Below are positions 4,092-48,646 of a DNA stretch of 64,000 nucleotides, piece by piece. Below the pieces are notes generated by a model, which worked only from the letters and a program-made list of their open reading frames with translations, ran no database searches and had not been told where the DNA came from. Both the position numbers and the translations under genes were made by a program. How positions within the stretch are numbered: position 1 is the stretch's first letter; each line of letters begins with the position of its first letter. Source of the stretch: Candidatus Omnitrophota bacterium (GTDB lineage Bacteria; Omnitrophota; Gorgyraeia; Gygaellales; Profunditerraquicolaceae); assembly GCA_028715785.1 (NCBI GenBank), contig JAQURC010000003.1, forward strand, positions 27,423-91,422, in the 5' to 3' direction.

Positions 4092-4799
4092 TTAACCTAG
4101 GATCCTTTTCTTAATTGCCCAAAGGTAAAACTTTAAATAATTAGGAACTAAATTAAACATTCTAAAACTGGATTTACCTTTTTCTCTTTCATGCCATATT
4201 GTAGGCACTTCAGTTATTTTAAAACCCGCGTAATAAGCCTTAAGCGGAAGTTCCATAGATATTTCAAATCCCTTTGACTCTATATTTATGCTATCAATAA
4301 CTTTTTTTCTATACATCTTAAAAGCATTGGCGATATCATGCGTGGGTATCCCAAGCAGATAATAGAGTGACCATCCGGCAAATGCCGAGAAAAAACCCTT
4401 TAGCTTTGAACCGCCAAGCCTGGCCCCGCCTTTTATGTAACGTGAGCCGCAAACTACATCATATCCATCATTAATCTTTCTAATCATCTCTTTTAATGTC
4501 CGCAGATCGTCGCATAGATCTCCCATAACCGGGATTACCAGTTCTCCTTTAGAGTTAGCAAAACCGCACTTAACGGCATTGGCAAAACCTTTTGGCCCAA
4601 GATTATCAACCAGCCTTATATTTGGATATCTTCCCGACAATTCCCTGACTAACGCGGCGGTTTTATCGGTAGAATGGTCATTCACTACAATCAACTCATA
4701 GTCCAGGTCAAGTAAAAACTTGATTTTCTCAATTACACTTATAATATTTTCTTCTTCGTTATGCGCCGGGACAATTATTGATAAATTCATGAGTGTCAT
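4092..4799 (-). CDS. Glycosyltransferase family 2 (polyprenol-phosphate sugar transferase-like); the true start may be the second Met at 4790
   Basis: LSIIVPAHNEEENI...VVNDHSTDKT GT2 signature. The annotated first ATG lies inside a family B repeat copy. Confidence 0.8.
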   Translation of the reverse strand: MTLMNLSIIVPAHNEEENIISVIEKIKFLLDLDYELIVVNDHSTDKTAALVRELSGRYPNIRLVDNLGPKGFANAVKCGFANSKGELVIPVMGDLCDDLRTLKEMIRKINDGYDVVCGSRYIKGGARLGGSKLKGFFSAFAGWSLYYLLGIPTHDIANAFKMYRKKVIDSINIESKGFEISMELPLKAYYAGFKITEVPTIWHEREKGKSSFRMFNLVPNYLKFYLWAIKKRILG

Positions 4800-4827
4800 T
4801 GCGAGCCCCTTTAGGGGCGAAGCAATC
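4793..4827 (+). repeat. Family B structured repeat copy B1 (GTGTCATTGCGAG-CCCCTTTAGGGG-CGAAGCAATC)
   Basis: Read directly. Intergenic between two GT2 genes. A TTGC...GCAA outer stem plus a CCCC/GGGG inner stem can form a hairpin. Confidence 0.6.
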
Positions 4828-4830
4828 GCT

Positions 4831-5613
4831 TCAATCTATTAATTTTCCTTCTTGTGAAGCCTTTTCCCAAATCTTAAGCCATCTTACTTGCGGGCCGATT
4901 ACGCTTAAGATACACCAGGCCAAGCCATGCATGCCGTCTTTGTAGCCTTTTTTTCTGATATAGAGTTTCCAAAATAGCCTAAGCGATTTCCATGTAAGCC
5001 GGTATTTTATTTCTTTTTTACTAACCTTAGGGTTCTCCTTTAGATAAATGGTTGATTCTATATCGGAAAAGAAGTTGCATTTTCCGATAAATTGAGAAAT
5101 TGAATTAAAGGAATAATGATATACTTGCGCATCAATATCTCCTATCGGGCCGTCAACTTTTAGGGTTTCATGGACGCTGCTGCCGACATAAGACGCATTT
5201 GCTTTTTTAGATATCCTTATCATGCGGTCGCGTGAACCGGCATATCTTAAAGGCTTATTCAGGAAATAATTAATTCTAAAATACCTAAACGCAACGTAAT
5301 TGCCCGGATTTTCTATTGCTTGGCGGATTTTCTTTTTCGCATCTTCCGGGAATATTTCATCAGATTCTGTTTGTAAGATCCATTCTCCAGCAGCGTTCTC
5401 TATGCCGATATTACGCTGTTTATCCATATTATAGCCTTCAATTTCATGAGTAACTACTTTTGCCCGGTATTTTTTGCAGATTTCAACCGTTCCGTCAGTG
5501 CCAAGGCTGTCAACCACAACTATTTCATCAACAAGGCCACGCAGGGAATCCAGGCACCTCTCGATTTTTCCCGCTTCATTTTTCACCGGCATTACCGCGG
5601 TCAATTTAGCCAT
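4831..5613 (-). CDS. Glycosyltransferase family 2
   Basis: AVMPVKNEAGKIERCL...VVVDSLGTDGT GT2 signature. Confidence 0.75.
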   Translation of the reverse strand: MAKLTAVMPVKNEAGKIERCLDSLRGLVDEIVVVDSLGTDGTVEICKKYRAKVVTHEIEGYNMDKQRNIGIENAAGEWILQTESDEIFPEDAKKKIRQAIENPGNYVAFRYFRINYFLNKPLRYAGSRDRMIRISKKANASYVGSSVHETLKVDGPIGDIDAQVYHYSFNSISQFIGKCNFFSDIESTIYLKENPKVSKKEIKYRLTWKSLRLFWKLYIRKKGYKDGMHGLAWCILSVIGPQVRWLKIWEKASQEGKLID

Positions 5614-5615
5614 TC

Positions 5616-6290
5616 CTATTTTACTCCTTTAATAAATTCTTCAAGAAAGTTTTCCGGTTTTAAATTCAATAACTTTATCCTATTTGCTTCAAGTCCAGAA
5701 TATGGCATAAGCCTGATATCTTCAGGCGTATAATTGAGCATATTTTCCGGCTTGCCTCTAGTTACAACGCCTACCCCATGGTCACAATCAAGCACAAAGA
5801 CACGAAGATCGCTTCGCAGGCTGCGTAAATGCACAATGGTTTTCCAGACATCTCCGCACCACGGCCCGCCGGATTGGAGAGCAAGATGGCTGGCTTCGCT
5901 TTCAGATTCAGGATTACAGTCGTGCAAAACAATAAAACCAGCATTGTTTAGGTATTTTAATACGTTTAAAACATCTTTTAAGGATTGTTCATAGGTATGT
6001 AGTCCGTCATCTAAAGCAACATCCAGTTTATTCTTATCGAAAAGATTAGAGTTATTTAGGAAAAAATCATCGCTGGTTACTTCAAAAAACATTTCTTTTC
6101 TAAAATTTAAAATGTTTACGATTACGCCTTTAATTTTTTTCTTTAGCTTTAATTTAAAATGCGGATCTACGGCAATTTTTCTTTTAGCATGTATGGCAAA
6201 GAAACTGTTGCCATAATCAGTGCCAATTTCCAAATAAGTTTTTCCTTTTATTTTATCTAATAATGCCTGCACTGCCTGTATCCTATCCAT
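5616..6290 (-). CDS. Putative class I SAM-dependent methyltransferase (Methyltransf_24/TylF-like)
   Basis: YLEIGTDYGNS glycine-rich motif-I-like segment, about 220 aa, sugar-cluster context. Weak assignment. Confidence 0.4.
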   Translation of the reverse strand: MDRIQAVQALLDKIKGKTYLEIGTDYGNSFFAIHAKRKIAVDPHFKLKLKKKIKGVIVNILNFRKEMFFEVTSDDFFLNNSNLFDKNKLDVALDDGLHTYEQSLKDVLNVLKYLNNAGFIVLHDCNPESESEASHLALQSGGPWCGDVWKTIVHLRSLRSDLRVFVLDCDHGVGVVTRGKPENMLNYTPEDIRLMPYSGLEANRIKLLNLKPENFLEEFIKGVK

Positions 6291-6297
6291 TAATTCT

Positions 6298-8367
6298 CTA
6301 ATCCTTATTAAATTTAAGTTTATAAATACGTATCGTGCTATTTTTAAAAACTGGATTAAATATCTCCGGATGCGCTATTGCCCATTTGTCTTCAATGGGG
6401 AAATCATCGGTTTTCTTTATCAATTCCGAGTAAACAAAAAGAAAATCAATTCTTTTGTTTTTAAGGTTAGCAAGCCAAACATTATAATCTGCATTTCCCC
6501 TATAATTTTCAGGGCTTTCAAAATTCCTAAAAACTTTATTCCCATTATAGCCCCAAATGTATTTAGAATCAGGAAAATAATGAAGCATTGCCGGCTCAAC
6601 TTTATTTATAGAAACATAGTAAACATTATTTTTAAAATTCGTTCCGTACAAGGGAAAACCAACAGGTCTGCCGATATAAGCAATATTATTTCCAGTGGTA
6701 TTATCATTAAGCCAATTCCAAGCTTGGGCGGCATCCGGCCAGAACCCGGAATATTTGACCATCTTTGAATAGCTTGGAAATTCATTTTTAATATAAAACT
6801 TTTCAATAAAAACAAGGCTTAGGAATGTAAGAATACATAAGATGATAATTTTTAATTTAAAATTTTTCTTTAACAGTTTTATTATTGATCCAAAAGTAAA
6901 AAATAGTGTTAAAGATAGAATTAAACCTGCAATAAGCTCGTATTTTTTGGCAAGTTCCGGGATTGAGCCAATTACGCACAAAGCAACCAAAATTTTTAAG
7001 AATAATTTTTGTATTTTAAACGCTTCCGCCGCGTAAAAGAAAATTAATATACCAACAGCAAAAAGCGCATAAATGTAACGGATATTCGGCAAAGGGATAA
7101 CAAATCTAAAGGTTAATATGATCAGAAAAGGCAGAATTAATAAATAATCCATTAATAAGCTATGGGTTTTTCTATTTTTAAAAAGTAGTATTGGGCAAGC
7201 TAACACAATCGCCGGCAAGACAAAAATAAGTGTCTGCCCTCCCAGGCCTTCATGAAATAAGAATTTGGCGATGTTAAAGTCTCCCGGCCTTATGCCTGTG
7301 CGGTAAACCACGCTATCAACTACTCCTCTAAAAATTGTGTGTCCGGCTATTTTTAAGTTCAACGGGTAAAGTGGATTATGGGTCAGGATAAAATTCTTTA
7401 TATAACTAAAACCACCCACAGCCAAAATCGGTAAAAAACAAGCAGTAAGAGCGAACATTTTTTTATAGCCAGTATTTTTTGAGAAACATAAATAAAGTAA
7501 CGGCAATAGCAGTAACAATATAATCGGCATTGCTGTAGTTTTAGTACCAATACTAAGGCCGATAGCTAAAGAGCATAAAATAACATTTCTGACCTTGCCT
7601 TCCTTATTAATCAAGAATAAATAATTTAAGGCGATTAAGAATAAGGCTGCTACGATAATATCGATATAGGCGATTTGCAGCTGTTTGAAATAATTTGGGA
7701 TCAAACTAAACAAAACTGCCGCGTAGAATGAAAACTCTTTTGAAAGGTTGAGTTTTCTGGCTAATGAGACTACCGTGAAAAAAGCGGCAATAAAAAATGG
7801 CAGCTGCCCCAAATCAGCCAAAAATACATTTTTTAGCGGTAATATAAACCAGAGGAAAAATAAACTGCCGTTTACGGGGTAATAAGATACGCTTGGGTCG
7901 CCGGATATGCTTATGGGGTTATCAAGGTTATGGTTTTTAAGCCACTCCACGGGAAAAGTAAAATGGTAATTGAGATCATCCCAGCCAAAAGGCGGATTAA
8001 AAAGGTTAATAATAATTTTTACCAATCCAAACCCCAAGAGCACTGCCAAACAAAGCCGGGTAATGTTGTTAATATTTATACCGGTGTTTTGGAAAATAGC
8101 TGAATTTTTAAGATTAACTTTAGCGAATTTGATAACGCCAAGGCTGATAACGAGTACAAATAAGTTAATTAATATGACGTTGTTTAGCTTAAGTAAACCG
8201 AATACTCCTAATAATTCTAAAGTTATGACAATTTGCGAAAAATAAAGAATGAATATGCCAAGAAAGTAGTCTATCCTATTGCTGATCCTAAACAGATATT
8301 TAGCCAGAATTGCCGCATTTGCCAGAACAATTAAATTCATTAATAGCAGTATGAGCATATTAAACAT
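6298..8367 (-). CDS. Large multi-pass membrane protein with a C-terminal soluble domain; GT-C-type (ArnT/PMT-like) glycosyltransferase candidate
   Basis: About 500 aa of hydrophobic helices followed by about 180 aa hydrophilic. AT-rich gene. Confidence 0.4.
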   Translation of the reverse strand: MFNMLILLLMNLIVLANAAILAKYLFRISNRIDYFLGIFILYFSQIVITLELLGVFGLLKLNNVILINLFVLVISLGVIKFAKVNLKNSAIFQNTGININNITRLCLAVLLGFGLVKIIINLFNPPFGWDDLNYHFTFPVEWLKNHNLDNPISISGDPSVSYYPVNGSLFFLWFILPLKNVFLADLGQLPFFIAAFFTVVSLARKLNLSKEFSFYAAVLFSLIPNYFKQLQIAYIDIIVAALFLIALNYLFLINKEGKVRNVILCSLAIGLSIGTKTTAMPIILLLLLPLLYLCFSKNTGYKKMFALTACFLPILAVGGFSYIKNFILTHNPLYPLNLKIAGHTIFRGVVDSVVYRTGIRPGDFNIAKFLFHEGLGGQTLIFVLPAIVLACPILLFKNRKTHSLLMDYLLILPFLIILTFRFVIPLPNIRYIYALFAVGILIFFYAAEAFKIQKLFLKILVALCVIGSIPELAKKYELIAGLILSLTLFFTFGSIIKLLKKNFKLKIIILCILTFLSLVFIEKFYIKNEFPSYSKMVKYSGFWPDAAQAWNWLNDNTTGNNIAYIGRPVGFPLYGTNFKNNVYYVSINKVEPAMLHYFPDSKYIWGYNGNKVFRNFESPENYRGNADYNVWLANLKNKRIDFLFVYSELIKKTDDFPIEDKWAIAHPEIFNPVFKNSTIRIYKLKFNKD

Positions 8368-9238
8368 AAGTTTTTATAATTTTCACCAGTAATGTTAAAT
8401 TAAGGGGTTTAAGTTTAAACGCTTTGATAAAATATTGCCGCGCCTTTTTCCTGTCTATTTTAGAAGCGTCTTTTCCGATTGTCCGATAAAATCTAAAAAG
8501 ATAGTCTTTGTCCTTCCGTAATTGAGAAAAGTTATTTTCTAAGAAGATCTCCTTGCCTTTGATTAAATTTTGGCTGATGACATTAACATGAGTGCTTGAA
8601 GCATGCCAAGTAACCAAATTCTCATTTAAAAAATACAACGGATATTTGTAAGCGACTCTGGCTAAATAATCACCATCGTCCCAATTATACATACTTTCAT
8701 CAAAATAACCAGTCTCTTTTACCGTTTTTATAGGTAATAACCAGCTTGAGGGCGGTGAAATTAATATTCTTAAAGGATAAAAGTTATCCCTTTTGGGATT
8801 AAAGGCTACTCCGGACTTTATTCCGAGCGGGAAAAAAGTCTTTTTTTGCGCTTCGTCGTAACCATTGGTAAAGACTAAACCGATATCCTGATCAAGAGTT
8901 TTAAATATGCTAACCTGTTTTTCAATCTTTTCCGGCAGCCATTCGTCATCAGAATCCAGGAAAGCTATGTATTGCCCATGAGCATTTTTTAATCCGGTGT
9001 TTCTTGCCCCGGCAGGCCCTCTGTTTTGGCTATGGCGAAAGTAACTGACTTTAGTGTCATAAATTGATTGGACTATTTCCTGGGCATTATCTGTAGATGC
9101 GTCATCAACTATAAGAATCTCAATATTCTTATAAGTTTGCTTGAGGCAACTGTTTATCGCTCTCTCTATACAATTAGCCCGGTTATAGGCTGTAATTATT
9201 ATACTTACGAGTTGGTTATCCACCGCATTTATATCCAT
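8360..9238 (-). CDS. Glycosyltransferase family 2
   Basis: VSIIITAYNRANCIERAINSCLKQTY...ILIVDDASTDN...FLDSDDEW, a classic GT2 pattern. Confidence 0.85.
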   Translation of the reverse strand: MDINAVDNQLVSIIITAYNRANCIERAINSCLKQTYKNIEILIVDDASTDNAQEIVQSIYDTKVSYFRHSQNRGPAGARNTGLKNAHGQYIAFLDSDDEWLPEKIEKQVSIFKTLDQDIGLVFTNGYDEAQKKTFFPLGIKSGVAFNPKRDNFYPLRILISPPSSWLLPIKTVKETGYFDESMYNWDDGDYLARVAYKYPLYFLNENLVTWHASSTHVNVISQNLIKGKEIFLENNFSQLRKDKDYLFRFYRTIGKDASKIDRKKARQYFIKAFKLKPLNLTLLVKIIKTYV

Positions 9239-9262
9239 TATGCCAGAATTGTTTTACGGAAA

Positions 9263-10975
9263 TTAAATAATTATCCTGCCCTGCCTGTTTTCCAAAAATT
9301 CTTTTTTATACATAGGATTAAAGAATATAAATAAATCATTATATTTATCGTTATATATTTCTTTGAATCCTCTTTCTTTTAACTCAATAATAACCTGATC
9401 AAATCGTTCCTTATCGCTTTCGATTAACTGGCGGTGCAGCACAACATATTTTGTCAGATACCGGCTATCCGGGCTATTTTCCCAGATATAAATATATTTT
9501 CGATGAGTAAGATGCGGGACTAGCCTGTGAACCGCAGAGACTGAGGCACCTTCGGGAATGTTTTTTAAGGCCATCCTTATTTCAGATGAATGCAACTGCT
9601 TTGCTGAATGGATAAACTTGGACAACTTATGGCCGTCGCTTTTGCCAAAGAAAAACAAAGAAAGGAATATAATTATAGCCGCAAGGCAAATTGATACCCT
9701 TTTCTCTATATCTTTAACAGGAAATTTATTCCTTATAAAATTAACCAACCTGCCTGCCCCGCATATTGCTGAAATAAAAATAAACGGCAAGACATGGGCC
9801 GGATAATGGGAAGTTATTGTTGACATACCGGGGTGGTTAATGCTCCCTATGGCCTGAAACGCAATCGGCAATAAAAATAAAACGTAGTGCTGCGGGCTTA
9901 AGAAAGACAGCATTCCCAGCGGAACAAAAAGCTTTGCATAGTATATAAGTTTATCATTAGAAAAAAATAAATTAATTAGTAACGCGGGATTTTTAATTAC
10001 AGCCAAAATATTTTCAGTGTAGGTTGCCCCAAAAGGAAGCCATTTTAAATACGGGTAAACCTTGGTATTGGCAAAATGCGGCATCACGAAATTAGTAACA
10101 AACGCCCACCACGCTATTGCCAAAACCAAAAGAGCTAATCCAAAACGGTAACGTTTAAGACAGATGAATGAAAAAATCCCGTAAGCAAAAACTAATACCG
10201 CCGCGCTCTCTTTGCAACATAGCATTAAAAATATGGCAATAACTGACCAAAAAGTCCGCTTGGTTATAAGCAAATAATAACTAATAAATGCCAGCGGGAT
10301 TAAAAAAACGTCGGTATGGAAATCCAATAATCCTGCGCCCCTTAACGGACGCGAGAGAAAATAGGCGAGAATAAAAGTAAAGACCAGGAACCTGCTTTTT
10401 AACCTCTCCTTTGCGATCAGGTAAAGCGGAAAAACTGCCAATCCCACGGCAAAGGCCTGGAGAAATATCAATATTATAATATTCGGCCAAATAAAGTATA
10501 AAGGCGCGATCAGGAATAAAACCGGCTCAAAATGGGCGCCCAGATGATTGATATTGCCGTCAATTGAGGAAAAAAAGAGCCTCCCTTTTACAGTATTCCA
10601 AATGGCCTGGTCTGTAACCCCCATATCTATCCCCGCGGATGAAAAAGCAAAATGCCGCATTATCCCGATATACAGAAAAATAAAGGCCAAAACCAGGGAT
10701 AAAAACCAAAGGATCTTAACATCTCCGAGCTTAGATATGTATTTCAATGATTTTACAAGCAAAGAGTTATCAAATGAAGCTTTGTCCAGATACCAGCGCG
10801 CGCCTAACAAGAAAATAAAAATTACACTGTGGACCGAAAGATTGGATATCCCCTCTTTGAAAATAAAAACGAAATCGGTTATAAAAAAACTAAGGAGAAA
10901 AACGAAATAGGCCAATAAAAATTGGTCAAGTAAATTGGTTAATATCTTCTTAAATTTATTCATGATGGCGGTCAA
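9263..10975 (-). CDS. Integral membrane protein (DUF2079/GT-C-like), function unknown
   Basis: 570 aa, more than 10 predicted TM helices, within the glycan cluster. Confidence 0.35.
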   Translation of the reverse strand: MTAIMNKFKKILTNLLDQFLLAYFVFLLSFFITDFVFIFKEGISNLSVHSVIFIFLLGARWYLDKASFDNSLLVKSLKYISKLGDVKILWFLSLVLAFIFLYIGIMRHFAFSSAGIDMGVTDQAIWNTVKGRLFFSSIDGNINHLGAHFEPVLFLIAPLYFIWPNIIILIFLQAFAVGLAVFPLYLIAKERLKSRFLVFTFILAYFLSRPLRGAGLLDFHTDVFLIPLAFISYYLLITKRTFWSVIAIFLMLCCKESAAVLVFAYGIFSFICLKRYRFGLALLVLAIAWWAFVTNFVMPHFANTKVYPYLKWLPFGATYTENILAVIKNPALLINLFFSNDKLIYYAKLFVPLGMLSFLSPQHYVLFLLPIAFQAIGSINHPGMSTITSHYPAHVLPFIFISAICGAGRLVNFIRNKFPVKDIEKRVSICLAAIIIFLSLFFFGKSDGHKLSKFIHSAKQLHSSEIRMALKNIPEGASVSAVHRLVPHLTHRKYIYIWENSPDSRYLTKYVVLHRQLIESDKERFDQVIIELKERGFKEIYNDKYNDLFIFFNPMYKKEFLENRQGRIII

Positions 10976-35088: not shown

Positions 35089-36057
<969 letters not shown>

Positions 36058-36062: not shown

Positions 36063-36100
36063 GATTGCTTCGTCGGGCTTTGCCCTCCTCGCAACGACAC
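36063..36100 (-). repeat. Family B repeat copy B3 (GTGTCGTTGCGAGGAGGGCAAAGCCCGACGAAGCAATC), intergenic between gmd and fcl
   Basis: Read directly. Confidence 0.55.
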
Positions 36101-36115: not shown

Positions 36116-37159
36116 TTAGTCTACCTTCCACCATCTGTTAGGGAATTTCTTCTCCAATATCTTATCCCCTTCTCCTATAGCTTTTAACCCAAAGGCCCGC
36201 ACATCAGCATCTACCATTATCTTTACTAGATCATTAAAATTCACTTTAGGATGCCACTTAAGCACCTTCTTTGCTTTCTTAATGTCAGCAATAAGGTTAT
36301 TTACTTCTGTCGGACGAAAATAACGCGGGTCAATACTTACGTATTTCTTCCACTTTAGGCCAACGTAACTAAAAGCTTCTTCGACTAATTCTTTTACAGA
36401 ATGAGACTCACCTGTACCTGTAACATAATCATCGGGTTTATCCTGCTGTAATATTCGCCACATAATCTCGGTATACTCAGGCGCAAAACCCCAATCCCTT
36501 TTTGCATTAAGATTACCTAAATAAAGCTTATCCTGCTTGCCGGCTAAGATGCTGGCTACTGCCCGGGTAATCTTCCTACTAACAAAAGTTTCTCCTCTAC
36601 GGGGACTTTCGTGGTTAAAAAGTATGCCATTACAGGCAAACATATTATAACCGTCGCGATAATTTTTTGTCAGCCAATACGAATAAAGTTTGGCGCAGGC
36701 ATAAGGGCTTTGCGGCTGGAACTGAGTAGTTTCTGATTGCGGCGGGAGCGCGGAACCGAACATTTCGCTGGAGGATGCCTGGTAGAACTTGATCTTTCTA
36801 CCGCTGCGGCGGATTGCCTCCAGGATACGCGTCGTGCCTAAGGCGGTGATATTTCCCGTGTATTCGGGGATATCAAAACTTACCCGGACATGGCTCTGGG
36901 CTGCTAAGTGATACACTTCATCCGGTTTTATATTAAAAATAATGTTATTGATTTGCTCGGCGTCGGCGATATCGCCATAATGCAGGAATAATTTTGCCTT
37001 TTTAGAATGCGGATCGACATAGATATGGTCTATCCTGCCAGTATTAAAAGTGCTTGCGCGGCGGATTATTCCATGAACTTGGTAACCTTTTGAAAGCAGG
37101 AATTCGGTTAAATAGGAACCATCCTGCCCCGTTGCTCCAGTAATAAGCGCTTTTTTCAT
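36116..37159 (-). CDS. gmd: GDP-mannose 4,6-dehydratase
   Basis: [35 protein letters not shown] is the canonical Gmd N-terminus. Confidence 0.9.
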
Positions 37160-37563: not shown

Positions 37564-38370
37564 CTAAAAAGGAATGGTGATTCCGGCTTCGATTGCCTGT
37601 TCTTTTTGGCGGGATTTCAGCCTTATAAAGGCTTCAGCATCAAGGTGTTCTAAGAATTTACGGGTCATAGTAAGAGTTGCGCCTAGGGGTTGGCCAAGCT
37701 CGTTCTTAAGCGCGAAAATAACTTTGTTACGGCCAAAGGTTACCTTTGCCCCGAATTCTATTGCCCTGACCTTGCCTTGGCCATAATCCATCTGAAAAGT
37801 TAGCCCTAAATCGCGGCCAAACCTCCATTCACCGTAGAGAATAATTATCTGGCCGGGCGCGCTCAGGCGGCTTTGGCGAATACCTATACCAATGCGATAA
37901 CAGATCTCTCCTTTTTTAGGGTAAAATGTCGGCGATTCAAGCTGGACCTTGAATTCAAAACGCGAAGTTGAGCTGCCTTCAAGTATATAAACAAGGCGAT
38001 TGGCCGAAGGTATGTTCCAATAACCTTTAAAAGTTAATCTGTCGCGGCCGTCTTCTGACGTATATTCGATCTGTTGATTATCATTTAGTTTCCAGCTTCC
38101 TTTAAAGGTGTAGGTTTCAGGCGGGCCTTTGCGGCCGGTAACTTCAAAGCAAAGTTGGTTGTAATCATTGGCGCGCCAGGTGCCTTTGAGTTTAAGTATA
38201 CGCAGATGGGATTGCCCCTGCTCTTCTGAGATTGCTTCGTCGCCTTCGGCTCCTCGCAATGACGGTCTCGTAGGCTTATTCCATGTTTGGATGGTTTCGA
38301 TAACCAGAGCATCGGATTCAGCGGCGATAAAACGTTTACGCAGGGTATTTTTTGGCTTAATTGATTTCAT
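37564..38370 (-). CDS. Hypothetical beta-rich protein, unknown function
   Basis: No recognisable motifs. Carries an in-frame family B repeat insertion (SLRGAEGDEAIS). Confidence 0.3.
   Translation of the reverse strand: MKSIKPKNTLRKRFIAAESDALVIETIQTWNKPTRPSLRGAEGDEAISEEQGQSHLRILKLKGTWRANDYNQLCFEVTGRKGPPETYTFKGSWKLNDNQQIEYTSEDGRDRLTFKGYWNIPSANRLVYILEGSSTSRFEFKVQLESPTFYPKKGEICYRIGIGIRQSRLSAPGQIIILYGEWRFGRDLGLTFQMDYGQGKVRAIEFGAKVTFGRNKVIFALKNELGQPLGATLTMTRKFLEHLDAEAFIRLKSRQKEQAIEAGITIPF
38230..38265 (-). repeat. Family B repeat copy B4, in frame inside the hypothetical gene
   Basis: Reverse complement GTCATTGCGAGGAGCCGAAGGCGACGAAGCAATC. Confidence 0.55.
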
Positions 38371-39673: not shown

Positions 39674-40720
39674 TTAGAGTTTTCTTAGCTTCGCCTCATT
39701 ATTCCTGATCCAGTTAAAAATATCATTCAGGATCGTTATTGCCGGTTTTTGCGGCTGCCATTTTAGTTCCCGGGTAACTTTTTTGTTATCCGTAAGGTAT
39801 ACGGCGATATCGCCCGGACGGTTACGCAAGTTGTGGCCAACTTTAACGTTATTACCGGAAATCTGCCGGCAAAGCGCGGTGGTTTCCAATAAAGAAAGGC
39901 TTATTTCTCTTGCGCCGCCGACATTATAAGTATTGCCGCTTAACTTAGGAAGGCTGTTTGCCTGTATGCCAATTAGCCGGCAAAGGTCATCAACATGTAA
40001 AAGGTCGCGCACCTGTTTGCCTTGCCCGCCAAAACCGATATATTTAAGCGGCTTTTTAAAATAGTGCGCCAGCATCCAATAGGTAAATACCCCCTGGTCA
40101 ACCTTGCCAAACTGCCATGGCCCGGCAACCACTCCGCAGCGGTTCACAACCGCCTTGATCCCGTAGGCGGCAATATACTCTTGCAGGATAAATTCCGACG
40201 CCAGCTTAGTCGCCCCATACAAAGTCTTTGGGCCGGTTAAAGAAAAATCCGTATCGATACCGCTAAAACGCGGCCACTCAAACCTGCTCTTTGATTCAAG
40301 GCGCTTGATCGCGTTTATTTTTTCATAGGGATAAACCCTGCTTGTGGAAAGGAAAATCATCCCCGCTTTACGCTTGCGGCACAACTCAAGGCAGTTAACC
40401 GTGCCCATCAGGTTGGTATCAATAATATAAGATGGATTCTGATAACCCGCCAATACCGACGGCTCGGCTGAACATTCCAATATCAAATCTATATCAAATT
40501 CCAGATCCAGGTCTTTGGGGCGCCGGGCATCACCGCGGATAAACTTAACGCCGTTTTCCTTAAGCCGCGGTAAATTAAATTCGCTTCCCCGGCGGACCAA
40601 GTTATCCAAAACAAAAACTTTAAGCCGCGGATATTCGCGCTTAAAATATACCGCCAGGTTACTGCCGATAAACCCCGCGCCGCCGGTGATTAAAATATTA
40701 TTATACTTCATATTTTCCAC
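39674..40720 (-). CDS. NAD-dependent sugar-nucleotide epimerase/dehydratase (SDR)
   Basis: ILITGGAGFIGSNL. YGATK YxxxK. Confidence 0.75.
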   Translation of the reverse strand: MENMKYNNILITGGAGFIGSNLAVYFKREYPRLKVFVLDNLVRRGSEFNLPRLKENGVKFIRGDARRPKDLDLEFDIDLILECSAEPSVLAGYQNPSYIIDTNLMGTVNCLELCRKRKAGMIFLSTSRVYPYEKINAIKRLESKSRFEWPRFSGIDTDFSLTGPKTLYGATKLASEFILQEYIAAYGIKAVVNRCGVVAGPWQFGKVDQGVFTYWMLAHYFKKPLKYIGFGGQGKQVRDLLHVDDLCRLIGIQANSLPKLSGNTYNVGGAREISLSLLETTALCRQISGNNVKVGHNLRNRPGDIAVYLTDNKKVTRELKWQPQKPAITILNDIFNWIRNNEAKLRKL

Positions 40721-40751
40721 AATATTTGTTTTGTAACTGGTTATCTTTTAT

Positions 40752-40778
40752 GGAATTACATAGACTGTCTATAATTAT
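40752..40778. promoter_or_regulatory. Family F palindromic motif (ATAATTATAGACAGTCTATGTAATTCC in gene sense) about 35-60 nt upstream of the SDR gene start at 40720
   Basis: One of four copies of the (A/G)TAGACAGTNTA(C/T)GTAATTC motif, each just upstream of a gene start. Confidence 0.45.
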
Positions 40779-41814: not shown

Positions 41815-41832
41815 ATTATTCCTTTCCCATCC

Positions 41833-41853
41833 ATAGACAGTTTACGTAATTCC
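41833..41853. promoter_or_regulatory. Family F motif copy (ATAGACAGTTTACGTAATTCC) 20-40 nt upstream of the SDR gene start at 41814
   Basis: Read directly. Confidence 0.45.
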
Positions 41854-41906
41854 ATCAAAGATAAACAGTTACATAAGAAATACTTCGAATGAATTAGGGA
41901 ATATTT

Positions 41907-42926
41907 CTATTTATTATACAGTTTATTAATATCCCCGAGTTTGCTCTTAAGCCACCCCTGATGCTTAAGCGACCAGTCCACAGTAAACTTAAGTCCTTGC
42001 GCGAGTTTAACAATCGGACGCCAACCGAGTTTTTGATAAAGCTTTTTGGAGTCCAAGCTATATCTTATATCATGGCCTAAACGATCCTTAACAAATTCAA
42101 ACCTGTCCTGGCTGACACCCAGGGTTCTTAGCAATAACTTGACTGTGTCAATATTCTTACTTTCGCAAGCGCTGCCTAAATTATAAATCTGGCCCGTTGC
42201 GCCTTTATTCATAACCGCCAAAATTCCTCTGGCGCAATCATCAACATAAAGCCATTCACGCACATTTAGCCCTTTGCCGTAAACCGGAACCTTACCGCAT
42301 CCTATTATTTTCAAGATCGCCAGCGGGATCAACTTCTCAGGATACTGCCATGGCCCGTAATTATTTGAGGGGCGGATGATTATCGCGGGAAATTTATAAG
42401 TCCTGATATACGACTGCGCCAGAAGGTCTGCTGCCGCTTTAGATGCCGCATAAGGACTGTTAGGCTTAACGGGAGAATTTTCGTCAAACTTGCCATTGGC
42501 AATTTCTCCGTAAACTTCATCGGTACTGATAAAAATAAATTTCTTTACCCCAAACTTACGGCTGGTATCCATAAGAATCTGCGTACCCTTAATATTGGTT
42601 TCAATAAACGGCGAGGCATCGTTAATACTGCGGTCAACGTGGCTCTCGGCGGCAAAATGCACGACGATATCCGGCTTTTCTCTAGCAAATATTGTTTCTA
42701 TCTGTTTTCTATTGCAAATATCGGTTTTATAAAATTTGAATTTTCCCTCCACCTCCGCAAGGCGCTTAAGGTCTCCTGCGTAAGTAAGTTTATCGGCTAT
42801 AATAACCGAGCCGTAGGGGAGGTTTAAACCTCCCCTACGGCAATCACCGAGAATAAGCCTCACAAAGGCGCTGCCGATAAACCCCGCGCCGCCGGTAACT
42901 AGGATTTTAGGTATTCTTTTACGCAT
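41907..42926 (-). CDS. rfbB: dTDP-glucose 4,6-dehydratase
   Basis: [16 protein letters not shown]...ADKLTYAGDL...FIFISTDEVYGE...SPYAASKAAADLL matches RfbB. Contains an in-frame palindromic insertion ([12 protein letters not shown]). Confidence 0.9.
   Translation of the reverse strand: MRKRIPKILVTGGAGFIGSAFVRLILGDCRRGGLNLPYGSVIIADKLTYAGDLKRLAEVEGKFKFYKTDICNRKQIETIFAREKPDIVVHFAAESHVDRSINDASPFIETNIKGTQILMDTSRKFGVKKFIFISTDEVYGEIANGKFDENSPVKPNSPYAASKAAADLLAQSYIRTYKFPAIIIRPSNNYGPWQYPEKLIPLAILKIIGCGKVPVYGKGLNVREWLYVDDCARGILAVMNKGATGQIYNLGSACESKNIDTVKLLLRTLGVSQDRFEFVKDRLGHDIRYSLDSKKLYQKLGWRPIVKLAQGLKFTVDWSLKHQGWLKSKLGDINKLYNK
42811..42840. repeat. Family C perfect 30-nt palindrome CCGTAGGGGAGGTTTAAACCTCCCCTACGG, in frame inside rfbB
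   Basis: Read directly. GTAG...CTAC ends around a GTTTAAAC core. Flanked by ...ACCGAG on both sides. Confidence 0.65.
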
Positions 42927-43720
42927 TCTTCTAAAACTGAATTAATATTCCTGGTTTTAAAACCGGTTTTCTCAAGCTTGGTTGTGGACAAAATCAGGTT
43001 GGTCCTGGCTAAACCCAGCTTTTTTAAAGCAACCACTTTGAATTTAAATCCCGGAACGTATCTTTGATAAACCTTCATAAGCTCAGGGTAACGCAAGCCG
43101 CCTTTGTTTACCACGTTATATACCCCTTTAGCGTCAATTTTGAGCAAATGTTTAACCGCATTGACAAAATCAGGGATATAGGTTACAGAGTTGGGGATAT
43201 CAATCACTTTCTTGTATTTTATAAGTTTATCCAACACATTCTTAGGGTGTTTGGCATTAAGCAGGGGTATGCGGATCCTCGGAATAAGTATATTGTAATC
43301 CCGGGCAAGCGCCTCAAGCGCCCTTTCCGCATATATTTTGCTGCGGCTGTAGAATAACCCGAAGAAATAATCCCGGCTGTCTTCTTTTATCGGCTTGTTT
43401 TTCCTATAATCGTAATTAAAGATACACCCGCTGCTTATATGCACAAGCTTGATGTTGTTGCGCAGGCATATTTCAGCCAGGATTACCGGGACAAAACTAT
43501 TTGCCAACAATGTTGTGTCTTTTTCCAGCTCACAGTCATCAACATTGCGCCTGCCGGTAATACCGATGCAATTAATGATTATTTTTGGGTTGTATTTCTT
43601 AACCAGCTTTTCGGCATCGCTAAAATAATTGATCATTGAGCCATCAATCCTGCAATCAAGTTCTTTTTGCAGCCTTTGGCCGATAAATCCTTCCCCTAAA
43701 ATTAAAATATTATTATGCAT
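42899..43720 (-). CDS. dTDP-4-dehydrorhamnose reductase-like SDR (RmlD family)
   Basis: 273 aa. [11 protein letters not shown] Rossmann motif and YSRSKIYAE YxxxK. Adjacent to rfbA and rfbB. Confidence 0.6.
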
Positions 43721-44579
43721 CCTTAAGCAGATCCTTCAAGTATTGCCCATAGCTGGTTGGTGTATGGCCGGCAAGCTTTAGCAATTGCGTTTTATTAATA
43801 TACCCCATGCGATAGGCCACTTCTTCAATACAACCAATCTTTAATCCCTGCCTGTCTTCAATTGTCTTAATAAAAACCGAGGCATCAATTAAAGACTCAA
43901 ATGTTCCGGTATCTAACCAGGCATGGCCGCGGCCGAGAAATTTTAATTTAAGCTTACCCTCTTTAATATACTCGTTATTTACCGCAGTGATTTCAAGTTC
44001 GCCCCTTTTAGATGGCTTAATCTTTTTAGCAATGTTTACCACGTCATTATCATAAAAATATATCCCTGAAACTGCCCAGTTAGACCTGGGTCTCTTCGGC
44101 TTCTCTGCTATCGCGATTACCCTGCATTTCTTATCAAATTCAAGGACGCCATAGCGCCGAGGATCCTTAACATAATAACCGAAAATTATTCCGCCTTTTT
44201 TTAGCTTAGCCGATTGCTGAAGTAACCTTGTAAGGTCCTGGCCGTAAAATATATTATCCCCTAAAATAAGGCATACCTTATCGGAACCGATAAATTCCTC
44301 GCCGATTATAAAGCTCTGGGCAATGCCTTTTGGCTCGGGTTGAGTCGCATAAGTAAGCTTGATCCCTAAGCTGTGGCCATCGTCAAGAAGATCTTTAAAT
44401 CTTGGGGTGTCTTTTGGAGTTGAAATTATCAGGATATCGCGTATACCGGCAAGCATTAAAACCGATAAAGGATAATAAACCATCGGTTTGTCGTAAATCG
44501 GCAGTAACTGCTTGCAAACGCTTTTAGTGATTGGATAAAGCCGGGTGGCTTTACCGCCGGCCAGAATTATCCCCTTCAT
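43713..44579 (-). CDS. rfbA: Glucose-1-phosphate thymidylyltransferase
   Basis: [54 protein letters not shown] is canonical RmlA. Start placed at this Met. The 12-codon upstream extension in the ORF track reads through a palindrome and is probably not translated. Confidence 0.9.
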
Positions 44580-44583
44580 CCGG

Positions 44584-44859
44584 CTACCCCTCCTGCCTGC
44601 CGGCAGGCAGGCCATATTTAAAATATAAAAATATTAATATCGATAAACTCACTAAAGTTACCGCGTTTGCCAATATGATTATCGGATCCTTGCGGGAAAT
44701 CCCGTAAATTATCCACAGTAAAACGCCGGCAGAAAGTTGGAACAGCATAACCGGGCTGACATCTTTAACAGACCGCATCCGTATAGACCTGGCTATCTGC
44801 GGAATGAAGGAAAACGTGGTTAAAGTGGCGGCAATTGCACCAATCAGCGTCCAAAACAT
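44584..44859 (-). CDS. SemiSWEET-family sugar transporter (PQ-loop, 3 TM)
   Basis: 91 aa. [19 protein letters not shown]-loop motif. [26 protein letters not shown] closely resembles known bacterial SemiSWEETs. The C-terminal tail GLPAGRQEG is a read-through of a 20-nt palindrome. Confidence 0.7.
44590..44609. repeat. Perfect 20-nt palindrome CCTGCCTGCCGGCAGGCAGG between the SemiSWEET and rfbA genes
   Basis: Read directly. Confidence 0.6.
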
Positions 44860-44900
44860 AATTAATGATTATATCTCTAAACCCCTGAAAAATAAAGGTA

Positions 44901-44926
44901 ATAATTATAGACAGTGTACGTAATTC
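44901..44926. promoter_or_regulatory. Family F motif copy (ATAATTATAGACAGTGTACGTAATTC) upstream of the SemiSWEET start and downstream of RAYT; the sense strand contains TATAAT
   Basis: Read directly. Inverted relative to the F copy on the other side of the RAYT gene. Confidence 0.45.
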
Positions 44927-44942
44927 TATTAAAGTTAGATGG

Positions 44943-45629
44943 TTACGAAACAAATATTGCGGCTTTCCGGCCTTGCCTTCTCGGAAAATAATGCGCGCCT
45001 GTCTTCACCAGCCTGCGCAAGAAATCTTGATCACCGCGAGGAATCTCTATATTCGAGAAATAGGCCTCCTTTTTATTATCAAAAACACTCAAGAATTCTT
45101 TATAAGCTGCCTGCCGTCCAACAGCCTCTTTTCCGAAATCTTCAAAATCAGGGCTAACCCGCGTTATGCCATCCTCTTGCCCCAAACAATAAAATCGCGC
45201 ACTACTATGCGCATATTCACAGGCCTCTATAACCATCCCCGCGCGCACCGGATTTCTCTCTACATATCTGCCGCAATTTTTCAAATACAAATCCTTTTGT
45301 ATCGGCTGCAATTTAAACCTGCCTTGCCATAAAAAACCCACTGCGTTATATTGCTTATGGTAATAATGGCTATACGCCCGATGTAATCCTGCCATAAATT
45401 TCGAAATTAGCTCCGGGTATTCAAATTCAACCACAAGATGGTAATGATTTGGCATAATGACCCAATGATATATTTTTGCATCAAACCTATTGCTATACTC
45501 GCAAAGCAGCCTCTCGAAATGACCAAAATCCTCAGATTCTTGGAAAATTACTTTGCGCCCACTGCTTCGGCTAAACGCATGATAAACTAATGATTGTTGC
45601 AACTGATGCTTACGCGCGTACGATGGCAT
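44943..45629 (-). CDS. IS200/IS605-like HuH tyrosine transposase of REP-associated (RAYT) type
   Basis: HuH motif VIMPNHYHLVVEF. C-terminal AHSSARFY region resembles the RAYT catalytic Tyr/HSS signature. Single gene with no tnpB, flanked by inverted family F motifs. Confidence 0.7.
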   Translation of the reverse strand: MPSYARKHQLQQSLVYHAFSRSSGRKVIFQESEDFGHFERLLCEYSNRFDAKIYHWVIMPNHYHLVVEFEYPELISKFMAGLHRAYSHYYHKQYNAVGFLWQGRFKLQPIQKDLYLKNCGRYVERNPVRAGMVIEACEYAHSSARFYCLGQEDGITRVSPDFEDFGKEAVGRQAAYKEFLSVFDNKKEAYFSNIEIPRGDQDFLRRLVKTGAHYFPRRQGRKAAIFVS

Positions 45630-45736
45630 TGCCTTTTCTCCTTCTGTTACAACTGACGCAGAAGATAGAAAAATCTAACAATATTTATTTTAGGAGAAAA
45701 TATTTCTTACAGATATGATTGGGGAATATAGGGTTA

Positions 45737-45753
45737 GGTAAACTGTCTACAAG
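45737..45753. promoter_or_regulatory. Family F motif partial copy (sense CTTGTAGACAGTTTACC) upstream of RAYT, in inverted orientation to the copy at 44901
   Basis: Read directly. Confidence 0.4.
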
Positions 45754-45775
45754 ATAAGTTTTTAGAATTTTAAGA

Positions 45776-46942
45776 TTAAATTCTAATCTTTAAAAATCTG
45801 CGGGAACCGGCCTTGAGGATGCCGGCTTCAGCCGGGACAAAATCGTCTTTTTCGATTTTTACGTTGTTAAAGCTGACTGCCCCCTGTTTTATCAGCCTGC
45901 GCGCCTCATTACCGCTGGCCGCTAAGTTACTTTCGGTAAGAATAACTAAAATGGTTTTCCTGCCATCAGTTTTAAAGACAGGCATATCTTGAGGAGTTTC
46001 TTTTTGGGAAAAAACGCGGGAAAATTCTTCCGCTTCTTTTTCCGCGGCCCCGGCAGAGTGGTATTGAGTGATAATAATCTTGGCCAAATTAATTTTTGCA
46101 TCTTTTGGATGCATCTGCCTGACTTTAGCTAAATCCTCATCGGTCAACAATTCATAATATTTAAACATCATCTCGTCGGAGATTGACATGATTTTACCGA
46201 ATATCTCTTTAGCCGGTTCATTAATGCCGATATAATTACCGCAAGACTTGCTCATTTTCTGGATGCCATCGGTGCCTTCTAAGAGCGGCATGGTCAGAAC
46301 CACCTGCTGCGGCTGGTTGAAATCTTTTTGGAATTCTCTTCCTACCAGCAAATTAAATATCTGGTCCGTTCCGCCGATTTCCACGTCAGCCTCAAGCATG
46401 ACCGAATCATAACCCTGCATTAGAGGATAAACAAACTCTAAAATCGAAATATTTTCTCCGTTTGTAAAACGTTTCTTAAAATCATCACGGGCCAGCATTT
46501 GGGAAACCGAAGCGTGGGTAGTAAGCTGCAGCATTTGGACCCCTGACATTTTTTCAAACCATTTGCTGTTAAAAACTATTTTGAGCTTGCGCATATCCAG
46601 GATCTTAGCTACCTGCTTCTTGTAGGTTTGGGCGTTGGCGGCCACCTCCTGTCTGGTGAGTTGTTTTCTGATTTCCGAGCGGCCGCTGGGATCCCCGATC
46701 CTGCCGGTAAAATCGCCGATAAGAAAATAAACTTCATGCCCTAAATCCTGGAATTGACGCAGCTTTCTTAAGAGCACGGTATGGCCCAGATGTAAATCCG
46801 GCGCGGTAGGATCAAACCCGGCTTTAATTTTTAAGGGGCGCTTAGTTTTAATGCTCTGCTCCAGCTTCTTACGAAGCTCATCTTCAGAGATTATCTCTAC
46901 GGCGCCACGCTTCATAATATCTAATTGCTTTTCGATATCCAT
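45776..46942 (-). CDS. tyrS: Tyrosine--tRNA ligase
   Basis: [23 protein letters not shown]-region and KMSKS motif. C-terminal S4-like domain. Confidence 0.95.
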
Positions 46943-46954
46943 AGTTATCCACAG

Positions 46955-46982
46955 CCGTAGGGGAGGTTTAAACCTCCCCTAC
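46955..46982. repeat. Family C palindrome copy (CCGTAGGGGAGGTTTAAACCTCCCCTAC), intergenic between rpsA and tyrS
   Basis: Identical core to the copy inside rfbB. Confidence 0.65.
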
Positions 46983-46989
46983 ATATTCA

Positions 46990-48531
46990 TTATAAACGGG
47001 CTGTCAGGCCGATTTTTGCCTGCTCCACATCCACTTTGATTACCTTAACCTTGATTTTATCGCCGGGTTTTAAATTGGCGGCTGTTTCTTTTTCGATCTC
47101 GCTGGAATAAATCAAGCCTTCCAGTTCGCTGTCGATCTTGGCAAATACGCCGAATTCGGTAAGGCTGGATACCTCCACCTCCAATTGCGTATCCAAAGGA
47201 TATTTCTCGGCGATTTTTGGCCAGGGATTCTCCTGCAGTTGCTTTAAACCTAAAGCGATCCTGCGGTTGGCAGAATCAACCGAAAGAATGGAAACATCCA
47301 CCTTCTGCCCCTTTTTTAAAACATCCTGCGGATGGCCGATCCTTCTGGTCCAGGAAATATCGGAAACATGGATCATGCCTTCCAAGTTAGAATCCAGCTC
47401 CACAAACGCCCCATACTCGGTAAAACCGCGGACCTTGCCGGATACGCTTGTGCCAACCGGATATTTTGATTCCGCTTCCAGCCAGGGGTTCTGCTCCAGT
47501 TGTTTCAAGCTAAGGGAGATCCTGCGGGAATCTTTTTCGATGCTCAAGATCTGGGTTTCCACCATATCGCCTACGGCAAACATCTCGCCCGGGTTATTCA
47601 CCCGCTTGGTCCAGGAGATCTCGGAAACATGAATAAGGCCTTCAATGCCTTTTTCCAGTTCCACGAAAACTCCGTAAGGCAGGATATTGACTACCTTGCC
47701 TTTTACCTTTGAGCCGACGCTGAATTTGTTCTCGATATCCTTCCATGGATCAGAAAGCCTCTGCTTCAGGCCCAAAGAAACTTTACCCGAAGCCTGGTCG
47801 AGATTTAAGATCATCACTTCGATCTTATCGCCGATAGCCACGATCTCGGAAGGATGGCTGATCTTTGACCAGGACATATCCGTAATATGCAGCAGGCCGT
47901 CAAGGCCGCCTAAATCAATAAAGGCGCCGAAGTCGGTAATCGCTTTGACCAGGCCGGGATAAATATTGCCGATCTTCAATTCGCCCCAAATCTTGCTTTT
48001 AGCCACATCCCTGTCCGCCTGCACTGCTTCGCGGCGGCTGACAATGATGGAACGGCGCAGGTTATTGACTTTAACGATCTTAAATTTGAATATCTTATAT
48101 AAGATATCCTTATCGGCCATATTGCGGAAAGAGGAAAGCGAACTGGGCAGGAACCCTTCGATACCCATAATATCGACCAGGAATCCGCCTTTGACTTTCT
48201 TGACCGGCTTGCCTTCAACCAAAGTGCCGTCATTGGATAATTTAACGATTTTATCCCAGCCTTGCATGCGCATGGCTTTTTCGCGCGAGAGGGTCATAAC
48301 GCCGGCGTCATTTTCCATGCTTTCCAGCAAAAACTCCATCTCTTTACCGACGGCTAAATCCGCGGCGCTGAATTCGGTAATCGCAACTATGCCTTCGGAT
48401 TTAAAACCCACATCCACCAGGACCTCTTTACTCTTGATTTCGACGATCTTGCCGGTTACAACCTGGCCTTCCTTCAAAACCTTGATACTTTGATTGTACA
48501 TCTGCTCTAATTCTGCTCTAGTATCCGACAT
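46990..48531 (-). CDS. rpsA: 30S ribosomal protein S1
   Basis: Six tandem S1 domains with recurring GxV.G.V......FGAFV motifs. Confidence 0.9.
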   Translation of the reverse strand: MSDTRAELEQMYNQSIKVLKEGQVVTGKIVEIKSKEVLVDVGFKSEGIVAITEFSAADLAVGKEMEFLLESMENDAGVMTLSREKAMRMQGWDKIVKLSNDGTLVEGKPVKKVKGGFLVDIMGIEGFLPSSLSSFRNMADKDILYKIFKFKIVKVNNLRRSIIVSRREAVQADRDVAKSKIWGELKIGNIYPGLVKAITDFGAFIDLGGLDGLLHITDMSWSKISHPSEIVAIGDKIEVMILNLDQASGKVSLGLKQRLSDPWKDIENKFSVGSKVKGKVVNILPYGVFVELEKGIEGLIHVSEISWTKRVNNPGEMFAVGDMVETQILSIEKDSRRISLSLKQLEQNPWLEAESKYPVGTSVSGKVRGFTEYGAFVELDSNLEGMIHVSDISWTRRIGHPQDVLKKGQKVDVSILSVDSANRRIALGLKQLQENPWPKIAEKYPLDTQLEVEVSSLTEFGVFAKIDSELEGLIYSSEIEKETAANLKPGDKIKVKVIKVDVEQAKIGLTARL

Positions 48532-48564
48532 TTCTAATTACTTCCTTTCTTTATATTTTATATT

Positions 48565-48646
48565 GTGTCATTGCGAGCCCTGAAAGGGCGAAGCAATCTA
48601 TCTTTTATGAGATTGCCGCGTCGCCTTTGGCTCCTCGCAATGACAC
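48565..48646. repeat. REPIN-like doublet: two family B copies in inverted orientation (48565-48598 plus strand, 48611-48646 minus strand) separated by 12 nt
   Basis: GTGTCATTGCGAGCCCTGAAAGGGCGAAGCAATC ... GATTGCCGCGTCGCCTTTGGCTCCTCGCAATGACAC. Intergenic between plsC and rpsA. Confidence 0.65.

Follow-up and report, generated by a model that had tools for sequence, protein, structure and literature searches.

The repeats described here are closest to two groups of elements that are known from other bacteria. The first is the superfamily of repetitive extragenic palindromes (REPs) tagged by CGTC, which includes dRS3 of Neisseria and RPE-4 and RPE-6 of Rickettsia, and for which no dedicated transposase is known, no tyrosine transposase gene flanked by CGTC repeats having been found in that study (Di Nocera, De Gregorio and Rocco 2013, PMC3733652). 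The second is formed by the hairpin repeats, known as NTS in Neisseria (CGTCATTCCCGCGMAVGCGGGAATCYRG) and as Ssn-related motifs (SRM) in general, that flank the genes of the Ssn family, whose members are single-domain GIY-YIG proteins of approximately 94 amino acids (CDD cd10448; Chenal et al. 2025, Nat Commun, PMC11893778). Ssn binds the hairpin as single-stranded DNA (ssDNA) and cuts upstream of it, and is inactive on double-stranded DNA, on RNA and on the reverse strand; the bases that matter most are, for cutting, the 3 nt upstream of the palindrome and, for binding, the C just after it (PMC11893778). The layout of repeat, gene and repeat was called insertion-sequence (IS)-like, its mobility not being demonstrated by the authors, and an Ssn homologue was found to be encoded in 81% of the SRM-rich genomes (PMC11893778). 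In this work, we analyzed a stretch of 64 kb (hereafter the window) from a metagenome-assembled genome (MAG) of a Candidatus Omnitrophota bacterium, which contains dispersed copies of a structured repeat designated family B. Family B is a new example within the known CGTC-tagged REP/SRM class, with an unusual bipartite stem, and the seven copies in the window are, in our judgment, probably non-autonomous repeats whose hairpin is the recognition site of an Ssn-family GIY-YIG nuclease.

The window was scanned by pattern searches for GTCATTGCGAG and CGAAGCAATC and then by direct reading of the letters. Family-B copies follow the layout YGTC-ATTGC-GA-(variable hairpin)-GAA-GCAAT-C, and the window contains five singletons and one inverted doublet. 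The initial annotation had listed six copies, all of which are present, but the one at 1715-1751(+) had been missed, and the count is therefore seven; the inverted doublet with a 12-nt spacer that it described was found at 48567-48644. Allowing at most one mismatch, GTCATTGCGAG matched the window eight times, compared with 0.67 matches expected, and none of 100 shuffles reached eight. The eighth match (45513-45523) lacks a proper right half, lies inside a Y1 transposase gene and is probably due to chance. The tag is TGTC in six copies and CGTC in one.

Folding with ViennaRNA resulted in the same architecture for every window copy, in which GTC is unpaired on the 5' side, a 5-bp stem is formed by ATTGC and GCAAT, an asymmetric GA/GAA internal loop leads to a closing G-C pair and a distal hairpin, and a C is left unpaired on the 3' side. 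The conserved flanks, which had been noted as able to pair (TTGC...GCAA), are part of a stem in all seven copies. The distal hairpin varies among these copies in both sequence and length, and the predicted energies range from -7.0 kcal/mol for copy 1 (at 1715) to -15.9 kcal/mol for copy 2. Covariation was analyzed with 58 distinct copies of 32 nt, taken from the window and other genomes, whose central positions were not constrained by the search pattern. Each of the five central-helix pairs showed changes on both sides, and double changes filled 33 cells, compared with 9.1 +/- 2.4 in shuffles, none of 500 of which reached 33. The covariation score was 0.172 versus 0.086, and 84% of the cells were paired, compared with 15-53% when the partners were slid. 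This agrees with the compensatory central stem that had been claimed from the window copies. The basal pairs 4-31, 5-30 and 6-29 were standard in 52, 58 and 57 of the 58 copies, respectively, at positions that were constrained by the search pattern. The two pairs beside the closing G-C pair were tandem G.A/A.G mismatches in some copies and Watson-Crick pairs in the others, and they switched together. A test of the central segments against mononucleotide shuffles was only moderately discriminating (mean energies of -4.2 and -2.2 kcal/mol, respectively), because tandem G.A pairs and 2-bp stems score poorly; the counting of pairs told more. The loops are frequently GNA triloops closed by C-G, for example GCGAAGC, GCGCAGC and GCGTAGC. 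A GNA triloop closed by C-G is an unusually stable mini-hairpin motif of DNA. The proposal that selection acts on an RNA or ssDNA hairpin therefore stands for the structure, on the strength of the covariation. As to its form, the relevant hairpin is most likely ssDNA rather than RNA, because the copies occur in both orientations relative to genes that are all on the minus strand, GNA triloops occur often, as do tandem G.A pairs, and the partner enzyme described in the literature cuts ssDNA only.

A pattern search across other genomes returned further copies, contrary to the refuting outcome named with the initial annotation. The exact 21 flanking bases, separated by a gap of 6-30 nt, were searched for in one genome per species (596 Gb), and at least 120 genome stretches were matched, compared with approximately 7 expected by chance (calculated with 21 fixed bases, 25 gap lengths and 2 strands). 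Among the matches listed, hosts belong to the Alphaproteobacteria (many Bradyrhizobium isolates), Gammaproteobacteria, Cyanobacteria (Nostoc) and Bacteroidota (isolates of Pedobacter, Chryseobacterium and Hymenobacter), and MAG hosts to the Chloroflexota, Patescibacteria, Planctomycetota, Omnitrophota, Zixibacteria, Desulfobacterota, Ignavibacteriota and others. A few matches in Helicobacter and Sporomusa have centres of 6-8 nt that do not pair and may be due to chance. The canonical 35-mer was rare in collections of plasmids and phages (2 plasmid records and 5 weak phage matches), and when the literature was searched with the nucleotide strings, read in either direction, and with the encoded peptides, primers only, or nothing, came up.

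With relaxed flanks, 249 copies were found in the 120 listed loci. Adjacent copies formed 78 inverted tail-to-tail pairs, compared with 8 tag-to-tag pairs and 11 tandem pairs, which bears out the view of the inverted doublet as the characteristic unit. The spacers of the tail-to-tail doublets are mostly 8-33 nt long, often have complementary ends (CAG...CTG or TC...GA), and are alike among the copies within one genome, for instance in Bradyrhizobium and Solimonas. The arms are unequal in 73 of the 78 doublets, 26 + 32 nt being the commonest combination, and family-B units measure 26-61 nt in total. Among 441 copies, GTC is fixed and is preceded by T (57%) or C (35%), which together account for 92%. 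In the tail, C is fixed and is followed by T (59%) or C (39%) and then by C (59%) or A (27%), CCA(G) being typical of alphaproteobacterial copies and CTC or CTA of those in the window; beyond the tag and tail positions, no conservation was detected in these 441 copies. Direct repeats of 2-8 nt flanking 97 doublets or units were at chance level, and thus no target-site duplication was found. Tandem arrays or dense clusters with identical short spacers also occur (L006 1372-1506, L115 458-2300 and L096), Chloroflexus being among the genomes with such arrays, which points to local amplification besides dispersed copies.

A partner gene came to light in a Planctomycetota locus, where a gene for a GIY-YIG protein of 96 aa occupies precisely the spacer between the two arms of a doublet. 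The protein linked to family B matches the Pfam GIY-YIG family with 65 bits, and the query protein is 44% identical over 93% of its length (E = 9e-17) to the product of an N. gonorrhoeae locus that lies amid NTS copies, the arrangement known for ssnA. The association was tested by aligning 30 homologues and by picking 80 metagenomic loci solely by GIY-YIG protein similarity. A family-B repeat was located within 150 nt of the GIY-YIG gene in 78 of these 80 loci, on both sides in 63, and the density of repeats was 8.7 per kb near the gene, compared with 0.47 per kb farther off. In the commonest layout, found in 21 of 62 units whose ORF could be delimited, a plus-strand arm is followed by 3-54 nt, an ATG with approximately 95 codons and a stop, 0-19 nt, and the inverted arm, and the full unit is 356-455 bp long. 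At some loci, the gene is instead flanked by two complete doublets, one on either side. A 26-nt arm is present in 10 of the 21 gene-bearing units and in 34 of the 78 gene-less doublets. GIY-YIG homologues on Rhizobium and Planktothrix plasmids are flanked by variants of their own (CGTCATCCCAGGGCTTGACCCTGGGATC and TGTCATTCTGAGTGAAACGAAGAATC), of which the Planktothrix repeat has a GAG...CGAAG core like that of family B and a different basal stem. Seen from the repeats, GIY-YIG genes are rare near random copies (two in the 120 listed loci), an all-against-all comparison of the open reading frames (ORFs) around the 120 listed loci yielded no recurrent neighbour gene, and the genes between neighbouring copies are ordinary housekeeping genes that do not resemble a REPtron. 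The association between such repeats and ssn genes is already published and not new here. On Planktothrix agardhii plasmid p1 (L204), the Ssn-type gene and the hairpin repeats around it occupy 398-682, within a defence island, with an MmeI-type restriction-modification gene on one side and the DISARM helicase gene drmA on the other.

Family B shares with the CGTC REPs an unpaired CGTC or TGTC tag and a stem that starts with AT. The variants reported for the CGTC tag are TGTC and CCTC (PMC3733652), and family B has T/CGTC. Both groups are mostly arranged in inverted dimers, largely heterodimers, with spacers that have complementary ends, both include intragenic copies that are in frame, and neither has a transposase gene next to it (PMC3733652). 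The tail of the CGTC REPs is 3 nt, unpaired, with the consensus CCA, and that of family B is short, with a fixed C; the stem of the CGTC REPs is a continuous one of 8-9 bp with a loop of 4-5 nt (PMC3733652), in contrast to the interrupted 5-bp basal stem and variable distal hairpin of family B. The CGTC-1 units of Bradyrhizobium have loops of varied length (PMC3733652) and may be family B itself. With the SRM and NTS repeats (PMC11893778), family B has in common an oriented hairpin of 20-50 nt with GTC on the 5' side of an AT-first palindrome and C just 3' of it, many copies in many phyla, and inverted copies around a GIY-YIG gene of approximately 95 codons in an IS-like layout. Unlike these repeats, the stem of family B is bipartite, with a conserved GA/GAA loop and a highly variable distal hairpin. 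In its tag and AT-first stem, and broadly in its tail, family B matches the CGTC REPs; it also matches the positions that are critical for Ssn, which supports the class assignment.

REPIN/RAYT systems, that is, doublets of REPs and the tyrosine transposases associated with them (Bertels and Rainey 2011; Nunvar 2010; Ton-Hoang 2012), are likewise built from short palindromes in inverted doublets, leave no target duplication, and include a single-copy gene for a nuclease specific for ssDNA hairpins that is flanked by its own repeats. In contrast, they have a GTAG tag and a Y1/HUH transposase, where family B has a YGTC tag and a GIY-YIG nuclease. The description of the doublet as REPIN-like thus applies to its architecture, but only by analogy. 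A further likeness exists with the Rickettsia palindromic elements (RPE; Ogata et al. 2000), which are in-frame palindromic inserts at tolerant surface positions, but RPE-1 is 100-150 bp long and occurs in one genus, whereas family-B units of 26-61 nt occur in many phyla. Other identities were considered and dropped. A miniature transposable element with inverted repeats (MITE) of a DDE transposon would have inverted ends, which are present, but target-site duplications in the 97 doublets or units did not exceed chance; the conserved positions do not fit K-turn, sarcin-ricin, attC, CRISPR-repeat or IS terminal-repeat motifs.

The observed anatomy, covariation, distribution, dominance of doublets, gene-repeat association and lack of target duplications can be brought together in the following model. 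The single strand YGTC-ATTGC-GA-(hairpin)-GAA-GCAAT-C would fold into a bipartite hairpin, and an Ssn-family endonuclease of approximately 95 amino acids would bind it and nick the ssDNA a few bases 5' of the tag, the specificity of cleavage for ssDNA and for one strand being assumed by analogy with the published enzyme (PMC11893778). The full unit found elsewhere (about 356-455 bp) would consist of the nuclease gene between two inverted repeat copies. The gene-less doublet at 48567-48644 would keep the geometry of the full unit minus the gene, in the manner of a MITE, its spacer (48599-48610) corresponding to the position of ssn elsewhere, and the five singletons of the window would be solo ends. 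Copies would persist where little harm is done, such as in short intergenic gaps and in tolerant protein loops that are entered in frame.

Several points weigh against this model. There is no ssn gene in the 64-kb window, and the window copies are therefore taken as non-autonomous; a cognate Ssn that cuts and spreads them is presumed to be encoded in the source genome. The published SRM pattern, HGTCWYN(0-2)YYVSBRHN(0-5)WNVSBRGN(0-2)RNCYNB, matched none of the 441 family-B copies, while it matched the NTS control. The role demonstrated for Ssn in Neisseria is not the mobilization of repeats: the meningococcal system restricts transforming ssDNA (PMC11893778). Furthermore, the association of gene and repeat could also come from homing of the nuclease gene into doublets that already existed.

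Beyond recognition of the hairpin by Ssn, the unit of hairpin, GIY-YIG gene and hairpin might even mobilize itself, in which case it would be the smallest autonomous bacterial transposon and the doublets and singletons its MITE-like and solo-end derivatives; this we put forward tentatively. A GIY-YIG ssDNA nuclease would then, if the suggestion is right, take the place of the DDE, HUH or serine/tyrosine enzyme, which is possible and the less probable outcome. The doublets and the gene-bearing units have the same geometry and the same unequal arms, target duplications are lacking, and units occur on many short contigs, all of which is consistent with self-mobilization, as are the recurrent in-frame insertions in one protein loop described below; movement itself is predicted. 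If the unit does mobilize itself, the near identity of the 21 flanking bases across more than 10 phyla would reflect horizontal spread of one enzyme-site pair.

The homing explanation mentioned above would make the nuclease gene a passenger, with the doublets being spread by recombination, replication slippage or another enzyme and the gene targeting the doublet spacers as safe landing sites, with the arms as homology. We regard this as unlikely. GIY-YIG enzymes are the classic homing endonucleases, the gene sits exactly at the spacer position, complete doublets are found on both sides of the gene at some loci, and no transposition activity was reported for Ssn (PMC11893778). However, within a single clade of genes, the cognate repeats on the flanks differ among Neisseria, Rhizobium and Planktothrix, and the specificity of the enzymes in vitro corresponds to them (PMC11893778), and matched enzyme-repeat pairs across genera argue for co-evolution of enzyme and repeat; the presence of Ssn homologues in most SRM-rich genomes (81%, PMC11893778) also speaks against a mere passenger.

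An RNA-level element, in which the hairpins act as stabilizers, processing sites or terminators in operon mRNAs, is a still weaker candidate and appears improbable to us as the main explanation. In its favour, four copies occupy narrow gaps between the genes of an operon-like, co-directional array, the hairpins fold stably as RNA, and many REPs are argued to be transcribed and possibly to act post-transcriptionally (PMC3733652). On the other hand, every gene of the window is on the minus strand and the copies are oriented both ways (three plus and four minus), though the GA/GAA loop and the flanks are strand-specific, and no U-run follows any window copy on the transcribed strand. Rfam gave no match at gathering score in the window and only chance-level matches around the doublets, permissive thresholds yielding no family; in-frame copies lie within coding regions, and Ssn does not bind RNA (PMC11893778). 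An RNA-level function could be a secondary effect of some copies. Finally, that the copies are classical REPINs mobilized by a RAYT such as the one encoded at 44943-45629 is very improbable, since, despite a Y1_Tnp protein in the window that is very similar to RAYT/TIRYT sequences, the inverted doublets that are a REPIN hallmark and the absence of target duplication that is expected of HUH-type ssDNA transposition, the copies carry YGTC and not the GTAG required by RAYTs, the gene has unrelated inverted repeats of its own (TTATAGACAGTGTACGTAATTCTAT and its inverse) with the nearest family-B copy approximately 3 kb off, 1.18 Mb of repeat-bearing loci contained just one further Y1 transposase ORF as against the GIY-YIG association in 78 of 80, and Di Nocera et al. 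(PMC3733652) never found CGTC repeats flanking such a gene.

The assignment to the CGTC REP/SRM class places this Omnitrophota repeat beside a biochemically defined partner, the Ssn ssDNA nucleases, and reveals one sequence family of the SRM class that is nearly unchanged across very distant bacteria. Since the published SRM pattern misses family B wholly, surveys built on that pattern undercount; a pattern that takes family B into account could have the form YGTCATTGCGAG-N(4-40)-CGAAGCAATC. For annotation, the repeat accounts for odd inserts of 11-12 residues in enzymes such as GDP-L-fucose synthase (peptides such as VIASEAKQS) and for many spurious small ORFs. The close match of the gene-less doublets to the gene-bearing units makes the route of multiplication testable.

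The placement of the window copies is given in Table 1. Four copies, including the doublet, are intergenic, two are in frame in real genes, and the remaining copy falls within the 5' part of an ORF of hypothetical function. Thus 2-3 of 7 copies are intragenic here, compared with 2% reported for the NTS of N. meningitidis (PMC11893778). The gene array around the intergenic copies consists of tightly packed polysaccharide and lipopolysaccharide genes. Copy 2 nearly fills the gap between the GT2 glycosyltransferase genes 4092-4799(-) and 4831-5613(-), and its GTCAT contains the first ATG of the downstream ORF, a second ATG being located 9 nt further in. Copy 4 is located between gmd (36116-37159) and fcl (35089-36054). 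In a related contig (L121), gmd and fcl overlap and the spacer with copy 4 is absent; a clean empty-site comparison is impossible at this junction because the Gmd C-termini have diverged. The doublet is located between rpsA (46990-48531) and an acyltransferase gene (48652-49248). Copy 1 is read antisense in the inter-domain region of the GT9 heptosyltransferase as ...EIASSCLRLPRND..., and the Pfam domain Glyco_transf_9 covers residues 70-299 unbroken across it; compared with solved GT9 homologues, no insertion was demonstrable, the alignment of the linker being of low confidence. Copy 5 is read as PSLRGAEGDEAIS, and it may lie upstream of the true start of its ORF, in which Pfam detected no domain.

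Copy 3 encodes 11 residues in a surface loop of the minus-strand GDP-L-fucose synthase (Fcl), and precisely there this enzyme is approximately 12 residues longer than solved GDP-L-fucose synthases. Among 120 aligned Fcl homologues, the loop carries the family-B element in all three forward frames; some homologues have two or nested copies, and others have different short repeat-derived peptides. In the relative on L121, whose Fcl is 86% identical as a protein, the DNA of copy 3 is nearly identical, with no difference at 10 third codon positions, while the codons flanking it differ freely. It is the nucleotide sequence of copy 3, rather than the peptide, that is conserved. The peptides found in this loop (aligned to 35400-35480) in Omnitrophota and other MAGs include GLSPKGTVPE, SSTNSPFTIHHS, EPRAKSQEP, ISQPQPHPQP and others, and the inserts are duplicated or nested in some homologues; the loop is a hot spot or tolerant sink for several small repeat families.

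Table 1. Family-B copies in the 64-kb window, with their segments in the orientation of the repeat
Feature	Position	Strand	Segments	Location and remarks
Copy 1	1715-1751	+	T followed by GTCATTGCGAG-GAAGGCGTAAGCATGA-CGAAGCAATC	Inside GT9 heptosyltransferase ORF 1226-2191(-)
Copy 2	4795-4827	+	GTCATTGCGAG-CCCCTTTAGGGG-CGAAGCAATC	Intergenic, between two GT2 genes
Copy 3	35433-35464	-	GTCATTGCGAG-GCGCGAAGCGC-CGAAGCAATC	In frame in GDP-L-fucose synthase
Copy 4	36063-36098	-	GTCGTTGCGAG-GAGGGCAAAGCCCGA-CGAAGCAATC	Intergenic, gmd/fcl; left flank GTCGTTGCGAG
Copy 5	38230-38263	-	C followed by GTCATTGCGAG-GAGCCGAAGGCGA-CGAAGCAATC	Hypothetical ORF 37564-38370
Copy 6, left arm of doublet	48567-48598	+	GTCATTGCGAG-CCCTGAAAGGG-CGAAGCAATC	
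Doublet spacer	48599-48610	none	TATCTTTTATGA	
Copy 7, right arm of doublet, inverted	48611-48644	-	GTCATTGCGAG-GAGCCAAAGGCGA-CGCGGCAATC	Right flank CGCGGCAATC

The window contains no tRNA gene, and it contains several other repeats. The RAYT/TIRYT-like gene of the Y1 (IS200-like) type, 44943-45629(-), encodes 228 amino acids and is located between tyrS and a PQ-loop gene, which are adjacent in L121. The transposase gene is bounded by its own inverted repeats, whose core was given above, in its flanks (44901-44962 and 45727-45751). The third copy of this 62-nt repeat stands alone 4.1 kb off, between two epimerase genes (40717-40778). A second palindromic family, with GTAG...CTAC ends, is present at 42809-42841, 46953-46982 and 61979-62008; it comprises GCCGTAGGGGAGGTTTAAACCTCCCCTACGGC twice, with the 30 nt from AGCC to CTAC identical, and the diverged copy GTAGCTGACGTTTAAACGTCAGCTAC, and these repeats may be the GTAG-type REPs that partner the RAYT-like gene. 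At 60650-60733, a 42-nt unit is duplicated in tandem, with 93% identity, inside the minus-strand ORF 60340-61446. Two long, nearly perfect local inverted repeats in intergenic positions, 55190-55257 (26-nt arms, 92% complementary, with a 16-nt gap) and 57027-57101 (37-nt arms, 78% complementary, with a 1-nt gap), are probably terminators or other hairpin elements.

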